Assembly: GCF_902196135.1 (NCBI RefSeq)
Contig: NZ_CABIKE010000003.1
Location: forward strand, 37,235-101,234
DNA length: 64,000 nt
DNA from: Helicobacter suis
GTDB taxonomy: Bacteria > Campylobacterota > Campylobacteria > Campylobacterales > Helicobacteraceae
Direction of reading: 5' to 3'
Part shown: one piece after another, positions 15,001 through 21,000 of the stretch
Layout: the number at the start of each line of letters is the position of its first letter
Numbering within the stretch: the stretch's first letter is position 1
Position numbers: made by a program

Positions 15001-18000
15001 GAGGGAAGCGATCAACACCGCGGGTGGTTTCAAAGCTCGCTACTACTTAGTTGTATCAAACACTCTAAAGCGCCCTTTAAAGCAGTGCTCACACATGGTT
15101 TTACCGTGGATGCTAAGGGGCATAAGATGAGTAAATCTAAGGGCAATGTCTTTTCTTTAGAGGAAGTGCTTAAAACCTATGGGAGTGATATTTTACGCCT
15201 GTGGGTGGTGATGAATGACTATCAGGATAACCTCAGCGTCTCTAGTGCCTTTTTTAAACAAACCTCTGAGAGTTATAAAAAGGTGCGTAATACCCTGCGC
15301 TTTTTGCTAGCTAACATGGAGGGGTTAGAAACTCTAGTACCCTTACAAGATTTAGGTTTGATTGATCGCTGGATTTTAGCGCTAAGCTCTAGGGTTTTTA
15401 TACAAGTACAAGATCATTTTAAACATTTTGATTTTGTAAAAGGTTTACAAAAACTTTTAGCTTTCATGGCTAATGAGCTCAGTGGCATTTATTTAGATAT
15501 TTGTAAAGATAGCCTCTACTGCGCCTTTGAAAAAGATCCTAAACGGCTAGCGATTCAAACTACCATGTTGTACCTTGCCCACCAACTTTGTTTTACTCTA
15601 GCCCCCATTTTGACCTACACCATAGAGGAGGTTTTCACACATGCTAGTGATCTGTTTAAAGAGGTGACGCTAGAAGGAGGTGGGGTGTTTGATCTAAAAG
15701 AGCCTTTGTTATTTGAGGGGGATCAAGAAATTTTAGAGGATTTTAAACGCCCCTTAGAAGTGCGCGCCCTCTTTAGCGAGGCTTTAGATAGCCTTAAAAA
15801 AGAGAAAAAGATTAAAACTTCTTTAGAGTTAGAATTAGGCTTTAAAAACCCTAAAGATTTAAAATTTTCCCACTATGAGGAGTGGCTTATGGTGAGTGTA
15901 GTAGGGGGTTTGCAAACAAAAGAGCCACTTTTAGAGGGTGAGGGCTTTAGCCTTTATCTTGCTAGTAAATATAAATGCCCGCGTTGTTGGCAGTTTAACA
16001 GTGTGGATCAAGAAAATATTTGCCCGCGTTGTACAGAAGTTTTAAAGAAAAGCGCATGCAAGGTTTAAGCCATTTGGGGCATAAAACCCCCTATATTGAC
16101 AAATACGACCCCAGTCTCTTAGAAGCCTTTGACAACCCCCACCCGCATTTAGATATTTTTACCCGTCTCTACACAGAGGAATTTACAAGCCTTTGTCCTA
16201 TCACTTCCCAGCCAGATTTTGCCAGCTTAAGCATTAATTACATTGCCCATTTAAAAATGGTGGAGAGTAAATCGCTTAAACTCTATCTTTTTAGTTTCCG
16301 CAATGAAGGCATGTTTGGCGAGGATTGTGCGGGCAAGATTTTAAACGATTTGGTTGCTCTTTTAAAGCCTAAATATTTAGAGGTACAAGCCAAGTTTAGT
16401 AAACGCGGGAGCATTGCCTTAGAACCCTTTGTGAGTTACGCAACAAAGGACTACCAAACTTTAAAGCAACAAAGACTTGTAAGGATTTATTAGAGTCTTT
16501 TTAAGGCTTTTATCAATCTATGCGTAAACTTTTGCTTTTTTGGGCGTAGTCAGTTATTTGGTAGTTGTAAGCAAATTAGTATGCTTGTGTTATCTGTAAA
16601 AGGGCATTTTAGAAACTCTGCAAGAAATCATAACCTAAAGAACCTACGGTTCTTTTCCAGAACGAATCGTATCTGTTAAACCGGGGTAGGGGGCTTTGTT
16701 AATCACGGCCTCGTTATTTTGCCCCCTATTTTTGGCATAGGTGATCGTGGCAAATTCAGAGACAAGGTATTTAGGATAGGTGGCGTAGGTATCGCGCGAT
16801 TTTTCCATTAAAGGGATGTGTTCGTTTTGAAAACAAACCGTGATTTCAGGATGTTCATGTACCCATTTAGGGAAGAAAATCATGCCATGGATTCGCTTTT
16901 CACAGGGCATAAAATCCAGAGCTACATCTGTACCTGTAGGTTCTGTCCAAGTGATCTTAAACACGCCCTCTACTAATTGCACTAAATCCACCTCTTGATT
17001 TTTAACCCAGCGCCCTGCTACCATGCCCCCGTGGATGCGATAATCAATGGTGTGGCTGTTTTTCACATACAATTCATACTCCCACCCATTATCATAAGTG
17101 TAAATAAAATGCATACCTAAAAAATCCTCTAAAGTCCTGCAATCCATTTTTATCCCTTATTTTTCTTTTAATTATAGCCAAGTCCTCCTAAAATGCGGAC
17201 AAATTTAAAGATTTTACATGATTAATTAGCGATTTTTTGCTAAAGTTGTGGTTTGTATTTTCAGCCTAGCTAACAAAGTTAGAAAGATTGAGATTGCAAC
17301 AATATTTTTAAACAAGGAGTTTATGATGACAACAACTGTAGGCCAGTATCTGCTGGATCGCTTAAAGGATTATGGGGTACGGCATGTCTTTGGAGTACCC
17401 GGGGATTATAATTTGGAGTTTTTAGATCTGATTGAAGATGATCCGGGCTTAGAGTGGGTGGGTAATTGTAACGAGCTTAACGGCGCATATGCTAGCGATG
17501 GTTATGGGCGTATTAACTCTATGGCCGCTCTAGTAACTACCTTTGGCGTGGGCGAACTGAGTGCGATTAATGGAATCGCGGGCTCTTATGCTGAAAGTGT
17601 ACCTGTGGTTAAGATTGTGGGCATGCCCTCAAGAAATGCCTCTATCAATCGCCGCTACATGCACCACACTTTAGGCGATGGGGAGTTTATGAAGTTTTAT
17701 GATATGTATCGTGCTATCACGGTTGCTCGCACGGTGCTTAACAAACAAAACGCTAAAAGCGAGATCGATCGCGTGTTGGCTGAGTGTGCTTTGCATAAAA
17801 AACCGGTTTATATTGGTATCCCTGCTGATGTAGCCCACCTCTCTATTGAGGTTTCTACGCCCATGCTTTATAAACCCAAGAGTGATAAAAAAATTTTAGA
17901 TTCTTTTTTAGAGGCGGCTAAACAGATTATCAAAAACGCCAAAGCGCCTCTTGTGCTGGCCGACTATGAGATCAAACGCTACAAACTTCAAGATGAATTG

Positions 18001-21000
18001 CTTGAATTTATTGAAAAGGCTAATCTACCCATCTCCACGCTTGCTATGGGTAAGGGCGCTTTTCCTGAAACACACCCTAATTTTATAGGGATTTATAGCG
18101 GTATTTTAAGTGATGAACGGGTTACTTCTGTGGCAAGAGATAAAGATTGTTTGATTCTTCTTGGGGTTAAATTTACAGACTTTTTAACAGCCGGATTTCA
18201 CTACATCAACACAACCCCGGGCTTTGGTGTCCCTGTTATAGAAGTGCACCCTCTTTATAGCCAAATAGGTGAAAAAGTTTATAGCGATATTTTAATGCCC
18301 GATGTGCTCAAAAAACTAGCCACCCTTAAATACAGCGCTAAGTTGCCTCACCCTGAAAAACACGAGCACACTAAACTAAGCGGTAAACTCACCCAGCATA
18401 AATTTTTCCAAGTGATTGAACAACATCTGCGCCCTAAAGATGTGTTGCTCACGGAAACAGGAACTTCCTTTTTTGGTTCTATTACAATCCATCTCCCCGA
18501 AAAAGTTACTTTTGTAGGACAACCGCTTTGGGGTTCTATTGGCTTTACCTTTGGGGCTTTGCTTGGAACTTGTCTTGCAGATAGAAAACGGCGCAATATT
18601 CTTATCATTGGCGATGGCTCTTTCCAGCTCACCGCTCAAGAATTATCCACAATGCTACGAGAAAACCTCACACCTATTATCATCGTGATTAATAACGATG
18701 GCTACACTGTGGAGCGCTGTATCCATGGGCCCAATCGCAAATACAACGATATTAATATGTGGCATTACACTAAATTAGTTGAAGTATTTGATGTACATCT
18801 CAAACGGCATGCCTTTAGCGCGACTGCCTCTTCTGTAGAAGAACTCAACCACGCCCTAGAGGAAGCGGATAAATCTAAAAAGCTCTCTTTTATAGAGGTG
18901 ATTATGGATCGCGACGATGCTCCCGTTCTTTTAAAGAAATTGGGCGAAATTGCCTCCAAAAACAACCAACAATAAGGATTGATAGCGCCTAAGGGCGCTA
19001 CCGCTTAGCCTTTTCATCACCCCTGTAGTTAAGCCAAGAGAATTGACCGGTCAAAATCGGTGGCTATTGTGGCTGTGCTATCGCCTGAACTATTAAAAGG
19101 AGTTTAATCGTCCCCGCTTGCTTGTGCGCTATAAGTAATTGCCTCCATGTTTAGGCGTTTAAGTCCAAACCCCCTAAAAAATCAGAGCGTCCGCGCCATA
19201 CTCAGAAGTGGTAGCTTCTTTTAAAATCACAAAATTTTGGGGGGTGAGTTTGAGTAGGTTTTCAGAATCTCTAGCAAGAAAAAGCGCCTTAGCTCTAGCA
19301 AAAACAGCTCTTTGTAAATCCTTACTACTGCTAATTTGTACAATAGCAAGCAAACCTAAATGCGCGCTATACTCCACCATTTGCTTTAAATTCTTTTCTA
19401 AAAATTGTGCTTCTAAAAGCAAAGCATCCGCCCCATACACTAGCGCCTCTAAAACTTGGTAACGATCCATAAAAAGATCTTTTTGGATAATAGGCTTACT
19501 GCTTAAACGGCGGATATAACCTAATAAATCAAGCGTTTCTAAAGACGGGGGGCTTTGATAGATTTGGCTAAAATCTAGCAAAAGGGCGGAGTAATTACTC
19601 TGCTCGGCTTCTTGTACCCTTTGTACTAAATTTTCTAAATCGTGGGTGGCATTAAGGGTAAGGATTTTATGAGGTTCTTTAAGGCGTCTGAGATTTTCTA
19701 AATCAAGTCTTGGCAAATGCGGGTTATAGGCTAAACTCCTGCCCAACATCTCAAAGGGGCGTAAAGTTTGCCTTAATTCAAGAGATTGCTTTAAATATTC
19801 TAGTGACACTCTGCAATAGATTTAGAGTGGGCTTTAAGCTCGGACTGAGAATTAATCGCCTCCTCAGAAATGGTTAAAAAGAGCTTTTTAGCCTCAGCAC
19901 AATTACCCAGTTTATAATATCCCCAAGCTAGAGAATCAATATAAAACACCGAATCGGGTTCTATTTTCAAGGCCATTTTGACATAATCAATACCCTTACG
20001 GATATTTAAATTATATTCAATCAGAGAATAACCCAAGAAATTATAAAAAAAGGCATCTTGGGCGTCTAAATTGCCCTTATTGCGCCTTAATTGGTACTGG
20101 CGTTCTGCAATGGCTTGTTCTAATTTACGGGTTATGGGGAGAATTTCAGCCCTTTTAGGGGGTTTTTTAGCGCTTATATCCTCGTAAGAATAAACAGCCT
20201 CTAGGGCTAAAAACTTAGGGTCTTTGCGTTCATTATAAAGTAAACCCGCCTGTTTAGAAGCAAGGGCAAATTTCTTTTGCGCGGTGTATAGATCAAGTAA
20301 TAGCCGTCTATCAAAGGGATAATTTAAAGCAATTTTCTCCGCCTTACTAAACTCTTTTAGCATGGTCAAAATCCCGATATAAAGCTGGGCATTTTGCACC
20401 ACTGGATCTTTTTCATAAAGAGTAGCAAAGGCTTCTTTGGCCTTTTGTAATTGGTGGAGCTGGATTAAAGTATTAAAACTTTTTTGGCACAACTCAGGCG
20501 AACAGCCATATTCCTCTAGATGTGAGGCGATCAAATCGGCGGCCTCTTGCTGGTTATTTTGAATCAAATAGAGGGTAATGAGTTTTTCTAGACTATCCTC
20601 ATCGTGTACTTGGTTATAAAGCTTACTTAAAACATCAAAGGCTTTGGTGTATTTTTTCTGGCTAATATAAAGCGATCCCAGTACATTATCTAGCATTAAA
20701 GACTTGTCTTCTTTGCGGATTTTCTCTAACAAAGCAACCGCTTTATCCAGCTGACCGGTTTTAATATAGCCATCTACTAAAATCTTATTGATAGAAAGGT
20801 CTTTATTGTTCTTAGTAACCCGCTTATAAAGCATGGCTAATTCTACAGCGGTGTTAATATCCCCATAGCTAGCAGCAGAAATCGCCGCCTCTTTGGCATA
20901 AATGATATTATTAGTTTCTTTATACAAATGGAGATAATCTTTTTTAGCTGCCGCAAAATCCCCCCGCTGGAAAGCATCTGAAGCGATCAAAATCTGTTGA

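Follow-up and report, generated by a model that had tools for sequence, protein, structure and literature searches.

The genome of Helicobacter suis contains two decarboxylase genes that point away from each other, and the question raised by this locus is whether the two enzymes work together or whether their genes came to lie side by side by chance. The window analysed here is a stretch of 64,000 nucleotides from H. suis (RefSeq assembly GCF_902196135.1, contig NZ_CABIKE010000003.1, positions 37,235 to 101,234 of the forward strand). On its minus strand, a 167-aa open reading frame (ORF) at 16644-17147, intact in the window strain, encodes a PadC-type, cofactor-free phenolic acid decarboxylase (PAD), as identified by the Pfam family PF05870 and by alignment with PadC. 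On the plus strand, a long ORF ending at 18975 encodes a 550-aa 2-keto-acid decarboxylase (17323-18975) that depends on thiamine pyrophosphate (TPP) and Mg. It has the domains PF02776, PF00205 and PF02775 and belongs to the family of pyruvate decarboxylase (PDC), indolepyruvate decarboxylase (IPDC) and KdcA. The two start codons are separated by an intergenic region of 175 nt (17148-17322). An earlier reading of this DNA, the original prediction, had described the divergent layout and named the two gene families; both ORFs were indeed found at these coordinates, and profile and structure-sequence scores agree with a PadC-type PAD and a TPP-dependent 2-keto-acid decarboxylase. It had also interpreted the pair as a two-enzyme module. 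We consider it very probable that the two decarboxylase genes were instead acquired horizontally and independently of each other, and that they are neighbours in H. suis by accident of genome rearrangement, without forming a functional module.

Both genes are real and strongly supported, and are not chance ORFs. The start of the TPP gene was assigned to ATG 17323 because of an AAGGAG Shine-Dalgarno sequence read just upstream (17314-17319, plus strand), the N-termini of the homologs, which all begin MMTTTVGQYLLD..., and the public gene call, which also gives 550 aa. The GTG at 17248 given by the ORF lister (575 aa) was rejected. The PAD protein of the window is identical to WP_163534504.1, annotated as a phenolic acid decarboxylase of Helicobacter suis and encoded on CABIKK010000003.1 of GCA_902196155.1, where the gene order is that of the window. 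The two sequences share about 98% identity over 9.8 kb, which indicates that CABIKK010000003.1 comes from a close relative, another strain. Both genes already bear these names in public annotation, the TPP gene as 'alpha-keto acid decarboxylase family protein'. In the literature searched, no paper mentions H. suis alongside either phenolic acid decarboxylase or indolepyruvate decarboxylase, and a transcriptome paper on H. suis and H. heilmannii does not mention a decarboxylase.

Conservation of the gene pair

Gene neighbourhoods were sampled from both sides of the locus. On the TPP side, 63 genomic loci carrying a homolog of the TPP gene were compared with up to 10 kb of flank; PAD lay near the homolog in H. 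suis only and in none of the 61 loci from outside this species. On the PAD side, 80 metagenomic loci encoding a PAD with 70-76% identity were inspected with up to 6 kb of flank. None contained an orthologous TPP decarboxylase (0/80), and one contained an unrelated TPP enzyme with 23% identity. Since the adjacency is limited to H. suis from both sides, the pair is a species-specific juxtaposition.

Synteny was then assessed by tblastn of the window proteins against the fetched loci. In the window, PAD is flanked by queF, and the TPP gene by a block of genes encoding an indole-3-glycerol-phosphate synthase (IGPS)-like protein, a TPR protein, a CxxCxxCC-domain protein and a DUF374 protein. The succession of the TPP gene, the IGPS-like, TPR and CxxCxxCC genes, three small ORFs and the DUF374 gene is the same in H. 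suis, H. heilmannii, H. ailurogastricus and H. felistomachi. Upstream of the TPP gene, the two species examined (H. heilmannii and H. ailurogastricus) have a divergent flagellin gene and not PAD, queF or ileS. Three other contexts of the TPP gene were seen in H. mustelae, H. salomonis and a third species. In the same position in other Helicobacter, orthologs of the TPP gene thus exist in part and orthologs of PAD do not. Because the TPP gene and its downstream block are kept in other species without PAD beside them, the TPP gene predates PAD at this locus. PAD would have come to lie beside a pre-existing TPP gene, at a rearrangement breakpoint and minus its regulator.

These observations bear directly on the module proposed in the original prediction, in which PAD would act on hydroxycinnamates and an indolepyruvate/phenylpyruvate decarboxylase (IPDC/PPDC) on aryl-pyruvates, both being co-regulated from the shared 175 nt. 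The divergent layout with its short common intergenic region is real and is kept in all three H. suis lineages, and both decarboxylase families include aromatic substrates, KdcA-type enzymes accepting phenylpyruvate and IPDC being the second-best solved relative of the TPP protein. Such a module nevertheless appears highly improbable. The two genes differ in their phylogenetic distributions, they are paired in none of the loci sampled outside H. suis (0/61 and 0/80), and the TPP gene is the older of the two at the locus. In most sequenced strains a frameshift has made PAD a pseudogene; the TPP gene there is still whole and evolving under purifying selection, and the TPP enzyme scores below both IPDC-type equivalog cut-offs. 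Chemically, the two reactions share no intermediate and neither product is the substrate of the other enzyme. Within the gap, a repeat search of 17148-17322 revealed no PadR-type operator, repeat or palindrome above background, and promoter signals in 16400-19300 (4 sites) did not exceed the expectation from shuffled sequences (5.8 ± 2.6). The idea that the gap holds a common operator or promoters of the sigma-70 type was accordingly set aside, nothing standing above the shuffled expectation.

Distribution and origin of the two genes

A homolog search with the TPP protein returned 7,941 relatives, the best 120 of which, listed down to about 48% identity, were considered. Orthologs with 65-72% identity occur in at least 10 other Helicobacter species, so that the pair's description as unexpected in a Helicobacter does not apply to the TPP gene. 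In the homolog search they are annotated, with 65-71% identity, in H. ailurogastricus, H. heilmannii, H. salomonis, H. bizzozeronii, H. mustelae, H. vulpis and Helicobacter sp. NHP19-003, and a genome scan added H. cynogastricus and H. felistomachi. Proteins from Clostridium and Sarcina with 68% identity are interleaved with them in the homolog list. The closest relatives from outside Helicobacter, with 68% identity, are 549-550-aa 'alpha-keto acid decarboxylase family proteins' such as those from C. massiliamazoniense and a Sarcina metagenome-assembled genome (MAG), CAUWDH01. In a neighbour-joining tree, the Helicobacter TPP proteins form one clade whose sister group is that of C. massiliamazoniense and the Sarcina MAG, and the whole is nested among Firmicutes. 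Given that the Helicobacter orthologs are widespread and form one clade beside Clostridium and Sarcina proteins, the TPP gene is an old and widespread resident of gastric non-pylori helicobacters. It would derive from a Clostridium/Sarcina-like lineage, if the direction of transfer is as the tree suggests. Sarcina also inhabits stomachs, which makes a transfer to Helicobacter ecologically plausible.

The distribution of PAD is quite different. Its homolog search returned 720 relatives and, among the best 120, those above 76% identity come from H. suis only and fall into two clusters with 93% identity between them. They are followed, at 69-76%, by proteins from Ligilactobacillus, Enterococcus, Bifidobacterium, Lonepinella and Bacillus and by unlabelled metagenomic proteins; no Helicobacter other than H. 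suis appears among these best 120 of 720. In a separate neighbour-joining tree, H. suis PAD forms a long branch of its own, with no particular donor lineage beside it. The nearest non-Helicobacter relatives and the tree placements nonetheless bear out the foreign, Firmicutes-like affinities of both genes. The original prediction treated both genes as not known from H. pylori, in agreement with the lack of any H. pylori label among the best 120 of the 720 PAD relatives and the best 120 of the 7,941 TPP relatives.

The absence of an adjacent padR-type regulator, also noted in the original prediction, proved correct: the neighbours of PAD are queF and the TPP decarboxylase gene. With the PadR of the closest PAD locus as a query, tblastn detected no PadR homolog (best E = 6.3) across the window and three further H. 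suis loci. By contrast, 61 of the 80 metagenomic PAD loci contain a padR-like gene, and the closest non-Helicobacter PAD (P0002, 76% identity) has a canonical divergent padR. PAD would have entered the H. suis ancestor minus its usual PadR repressor.

The GC content is 42.7% for PAD and 42.8% for the TPP gene, compared to 39.9% for the window. The GC content at third codon positions is mildly high for PAD (z = 2.3, top of 46 ORFs) and unremarkable for the TPP gene (z = 0.8), and both have ordinary codon adaptation. The two genes are thus not strongly atypical, and a compositional island was ruled out, GC content and codon adaptation staying within the range of the window. No notable direct or inverted repeats flank PAD that would represent the footprint of a mobile element. 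The lack of a sharp island signal fits acquisitions that are not recent.

Several points weigh against two independent acquisitions brought together by accident. Divergent genes that share 175 nt could be co-regulated, and since both reactions consume a proton and release CO2, they may share a role in acid or phenolic stress. As the neighbour-joining trees carry no support values, both the proposed donors and the idea that the TPP gene was acquired only once are presumptive, and a second transfer could account for the position of H. mustelae within the gastric clade. The absence from H. pylori rests on the best 120 relatives listed for each gene. Finally, the substrates are those suggested by homology, and the changes in the pocket of the TPP enzyme in H. 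suis, described below, make its specificity uncertain.

Fate of PAD within H. suis

The cluster of proteins at 90% identity to which the window PAD belongs comprises three full-length sequences of 167 aa and, in HS5, NHP19-type and other records, many fragments (97+54, 97+64, 99+66 and 114 aa). Every N-terminal fragment terminates in ...FFPKLGT. DNA alignment traced this ending to the insertion of one nucleotide at 16865/16866 (minus strand; CCTAAA-C-TGGG), which changes ...FFPKW into ...FFPKLGT-stop and is absent from the window. A single C after CCTAAA thus breaks PAD in three loci, L065-L067, which belong to a tight H. suis clade (alleles at 3290-4010), while the reading frame is intact in the window, in L001 and in L002 (strain HSMf 331). 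L065-L067 are 99.7-99.9% identical among themselves, 93.7% identical to the window and 91.6% to L002. They also lack a 17-nt segment, GTCCGCATTTTAGGAGG (17184-17200, minus strand; columns 135-151 of the DNA alignment), located just upstream of the -10-like box of PAD. This segment is present in the window and in L001, and 15 nt of it in L002. The tight clade with the frameshifted PAD, to which HS5- and NHP19-type records also belong, holds most of the sequenced H. suis strains.

We then compared the substitution rates of the two genes between H. suis lineages. After removal of the extra base, PAD gave dN/dS values of 0.03-0.12 with dS of 0.27-0.39. The adjacent TPP gene gave dN/dS values of 0.01-0.06 with dS of 0.25-0.35. 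The matching dS values indicate that the ancestor shared by the three lineages already possessed PAD, and the low dN/dS of PAD suggests that it was held by purifying selection over most of the history of H. suis. The frameshifted alleles do not differ from one another and are undecayed beyond the frameshift, which makes the loss a recent one, confined to a single tight clade. All H. suis lineages have an intact TPP gene, including L065-L067 (dN/dS 0.03-0.06).

These data also speak to the view that PAD is a decaying passenger throughout H. suis, neither expressed nor useful even where intact, the window copy representing an earlier stage of loss. PAD is broken in the majority of the sequenced strains, has no regulator and has no counterpart in other Helicobacter among the relatives listed, all of which would suit a passenger. 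Yet dN/dS values of 0.03-0.12 over a dS equal to that of its neighbour denote long-term purifying selection where the gene is intact, the four catalytic residues, the Shine-Dalgarno sequence and the -10 box are conserved, and dead alleles that are identical and otherwise undecayed point to a recent loss in one clade. We therefore regard this view as unlikely and retain that of a gene acquired independently of its neighbour and lost lately in part of the species.

The occurrence of intact PAD in divergent H. suis lineages only is a side observation that may be new. HS5 is a pig isolate, and the name HSMf would point to Macaca fascicularis as a possible host. We hypothesize a link between the loss of PAD and the macaque-to-pig host jump of H. 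suis, which has been dated to 15,000-100,000 years ago (PMC9190127).

Enzymatic identity of the two proteins

PAD matches the Pfam profile PF05870 (PA_decarbox) with 250.8 bits, for a cut-off of 24.6, residues 6-159 covering profile positions 1-153 of 158. Residues 6-165 align with Bacillus subtilis PadC (2p8g, 281 bits) and with the p-coumarate decarboxylase of Lactiplantibacillus plantarum (2gc9, 278 bits), also named PDC or PadA. These reference enzymes (2p8g, 4alb, 2gc9, 2w2a) belong to the same Pfam family, with solved chains of 161-194 aa for 167 aa in H. suis PAD. Tyr16, Tyr18, Arg46 and Glu69 of H. suis PAD are unchanged across 22 aligned homologs, and correspond to Y11, Y13, R41 and E64 of the B. 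subtilis enzyme, the catalytic residues in the B. subtilis and L. plantarum structures. As this Tyr, Tyr, Arg, Glu set of PadC/PadA is kept, the same mechanism and hydroxycinnamate substrates are expected for H. suis PAD. It would most likely convert p-coumaric, ferulic and caffeic acids into the less toxic 4-vinylphenols without a cofactor, by the Tyr/Tyr/Arg/Glu quinone-methide route of its 70-76% identical Firmicutes relatives; these substrates are predicted from homology. Unlike the PadC/PadA systems, H. suis PAD resides in a gastric epsilonproteobacterium, has no padR adjoining it or in any H. suis locus examined, and is a pseudogene in most strains of its species.

The TPP protein contains the three domains of its family, all above their cut-offs: PF02776 (94.6 bits), PF00205 (88.4 bits) and PF02775 (72.6 bits). 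Compared with solved structures, it scores 483-485 bits against Lactococcus KivD/KdcA, 446-457 against Enterobacter-type IPDC, about 380-400 against yeast PDC and 152 against Azospirillum PPDC (2nxw). Its best NCBIfam model is TIGR03393 (IPDC), with 566.2 bits for an equivalog cut-off of 946; TIGR03394 (indolepyruvate/phenylpyruvate decarboxylase) gives 213.8 bits for a cut-off of 554.5. Assignment as an IPDC equivalog was rejected on these two curated cut-offs. Acetolactate synthase, a family that the original prediction had named as a possible misassignment, was likewise discarded: TIGR00118 gives 140.7 bits for a cut-off of 538, and acetolactate synthase structures score at most 92 bits. 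The catalytic residues are conserved (Asp28, Glu51, His114-His115 and Glu464, equivalent to KivD Asp26, Glu49, His112/113 and Glu462), as is the Mg-TPP motif GDG...NN (GDGS at 430-433, NND at 457-459). By these profile and residue matches, the plus-strand protein is a non-oxidative 2-keto-acid decarboxylase of the PDC/IPDC/KdcA group and not demonstrably an IPDC. The label 'ipdC', or indolepyruvate/phenylpyruvate decarboxylase, was too specific, given the scores under both cut-offs and a marginally greater closeness to KivD/KdcA. The enzyme would catalyse the reaction R-CO-COOH -> R-CHO + CO2, with TPP and Mg.

Its best-scoring solved relatives, KdcA and KivD of Lactococcus lactis (2vbf, 2vbg, 6vgs, 9msa), align over the full length with the same three domains, and Asp26, Glu49, His112, His113, Glu462 and GDG...NN of these enzymes are all kept. 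The physiological role of KdcA is Ehrlich-type formation of flavour aldehydes in lactococci; we know of no Helicobacter parallel to it. Enterobacter cloacae IPDC (1ovm), of the same family and fold, represents the second-best group of solved relatives. At L070 6641-7927, in a Helicobacter species whose TPP protein is P0158, the TPP gene is followed by a class-III aminotransferase gene in convergent orientation, the two overlapping by 4 nt. This was the sole context seen that hints at a route from amino acid through keto acid to aldehyde.

Substrate pocket of the TPP enzyme

The pocket of KdcA/KivD prefers branched-chain and aromatic 2-keto acids. Ser286, Phe381 and Met538 shape it and Phe542 blocks its entrance (PMC12455653), and a bulkier residue at position 286 shrinks it and favours smaller substrates (PMC12455653, PMC12312269). 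We compared eight pocket positions (KdcA 286, 377, 381, 382, 461, 465, 538 and 542). Most Helicobacter, Clostridium and Bacillus relatives have Ser, Gln, Phe, Phe, Val, Ile, Leu (or Met) and Phe, a pocket close to that of KdcA/KivD, compared to Phe, Thr, Phe, Phe, Val, Ile, Leu and Ala in all three H. suis lineages. The H. suis enzyme thus equals KdcA at 4 of the 8 positions (Phe381, Phe382, Val461 and Ile465), and most other Helicobacter orthologs do so at 7. The 549-550-aa Clostridium/Sarcina proteins have the same KdcA-like pocket as most Helicobacter orthologs, from which H. suis differs at three pocket positions. With respect to IPDC, the Leu found in H. suis at the position of Met538 is the IPDC state, and position 381, Phe in H. 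suis, is occupied by the small Ala387 in IPDC. Position 377 is Gln in both IPDC and KdcA, as against Thr in H. suis. Given these four replacements (Phe286, Thr377, Leu538 and Ala542 in KdcA numbering), the substrate range of the H. suis enzyme probably differs from that of KdcA/KivD, as judged from the alignment.

The same positions are changed in a second species, H. heilmannii ASB1 (locus L003, 10004-11647), which has Phe at 286, Thr at 377 and Ser at 542. By alignment, the codon for Phe287 (18181-18183, plus strand) corresponds to Ser286 of KdcA/KivD, and that for Thr379 (18457-18459, plus strand) to Gln377 of KdcA; most relatives have Ser and Gln there, H. suis and H. heilmannii ASB1 Phe and Thr. 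The codons for Ile543-Ala544 (18949-18954, plus strand) correspond to KdcA Leu541-Phe542, in the C-terminal helix that gates the active site; this pair is Leu-Phe in relatives, Ile-Ala in H. suis and Ile-Ser in H. heilmannii. Of the 287 alignment columns that are invariant in six other Helicobacter sequences and C. massiliamazoniense, 6 are changed in H. heilmannii and 28 in H. suis, with 4 changed in both (hypergeometric P ~0.001). The coinciding residues are 287, 379, 543 and 544, and three of the four shared changes fall on known pocket or gate positions of KdcA (286, 377 and 542). The parallel changes at these three positions in H. suis and H. heilmannii may be new.

A recombination tract as the source of the shared substitutions was rejected, since a sliding-window comparison of nucleotide identity between H. 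suis and H. heilmannii displayed no local rise. The changed codons and their neighbours are however identical in the two species, for which reason very short imports, of a few codons, may lie behind the shared changes. Position 377 varies within the heilmannii subclade, as a second, partial protein labelled heilmannii has Met377, together with Ser286. The Phe286 and Thr377 states also occur in 552-aa Sarcina/Clostridium proteins (P0177 and P0173). They are those of yeast and Zymomonas PDC as well (SDF...ETG[T/D]S; Phe292/Tyr290, Thr388).

One interpretation of this pattern is that the enzyme of H. suis, and of H. heilmannii, has shifted to small substrates and become a pyruvate/2-ketobutyrate decarboxylase like the PDC of Sarcina ventriculi, a Firmicute of the stomach, with an acid-favoured conversion of pyruvate to acetaldehyde. 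The replacements of Ser286 by Phe and of Gln377 by Thr yield the residues found in P0177 and P0173, they arose in two species, and bulkier residues at 286 favour smaller substrates in KdcA/KivD (PMC12455653, PMC12312269). Against this, Val461 and Phe381-Phe382 stay KdcA-like, where the presumed PDC-like Sarcina proteins have Ile and Phe-Ser, and the replacement of Phe542 by Ala or Ser should open the entrance and not narrow it. Overall similarity is also highest to KivD/KdcA, and P0177 is a presumed ortholog of S. ventriculi PDC. Taken together, a shift to small substrates is conceivable but doubtful.

A broader proposal, which we put forward tentatively, is that the pocket was re-tuned in H. 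suis and H. heilmannii (S286F, Q377T and Leu541-Phe542 to Ile-Ala or Ile-Ser), by convergence or short imports, towards a new substrate preference. Separately, PAD would have been kept in divergent H. suis lineages and lost in the tight HS5 clade, as a marker or a consequence of the reported jump from macaques to pigs. Any physiological role is, for both genes, a prediction.

Intergenic region and flanking features

The intergenic region contains a TATAAT -10-like box on the minus strand (17171-17176), 24-29 nt upstream of the ATG of PAD, which is probably the PAD promoter. It is kept in all six aligned H. suis sequences (6/6); the consensus promoter scan, for which a -35 box is mandatory, passed it over. 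PAD would probably be expressed from this promoter of its own constitutively, without induction by phenolic acids, since padR is missing. Past the TPP gene, a GC-rich hairpin, ATAGCGCC-TAAG-GGCGCTAC (18981-19002), begins 6 nt after the stop codon, in the 198-nt convergent gap that precedes the IGPS-like gene, and is a possible terminator. Terminator-like hits were no more common than in shuffled sequences (3 found for 3.1 expected), which lends the hairpin weak support.

The IGPS-like gene directly downstream is a 211-aa ORF on the minus strand (19174-19809) that shares 10 nt with the TPR gene upstream of it. Its match to the TrpC profile is confined to the central part of that profile (50 bits with Pfam, and 89 bits for a cut-off of 360 with NCBIfam), and the ORF looks like a truncated TrpC-like paralog. 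It also directly follows the TPP gene, with 50-56% identity, in H. heilmannii, H. ailurogastricus and H. felistomachi. Further along, the CxxCxxCC-domain protein (21152-21529, minus strand) is 94.4% identical at the amino acid level between the window and its closest relative L001, compared to 99.5-100% for its neighbours, and 88% identical to L002, which suggests locally faster evolution or a recombination import. On the other side of the pair, the GC content drops to 28.6% at 10250-10750, compared to 40% for the window. Several ORFs on the minus strand without a Pfam match (198, 125 and 96 aa, within 11644-12931) come next. Contig L001 carries PemK-toxin-like and GmrSD-type genes in the flank on this low-GC side. 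This side may be a variable or defence region.

Biological implications

As a module, the gene pair would have borne on the handling of dietary phenolics by helicobacters and possibly on the production of indole or aryl aldehydes. The evidence leaves two well-known types of enzyme, and thus an ordinary gain of genes. Within H. suis, the polymorphism between intact and pseudogene PAD separates lineages, and could serve as a lineage marker or as a test of adaptation to diet. If the proposed link to the host jump is true, losing the ability to detoxify hydroxycinnamates would mark that jump or follow from it. For the gastric non-pylori helicobacters as a group, the locus reveals a Clostridium-like 2-keto-acid decarboxylase whose pocket has changed in parallel in two zoonotic species.

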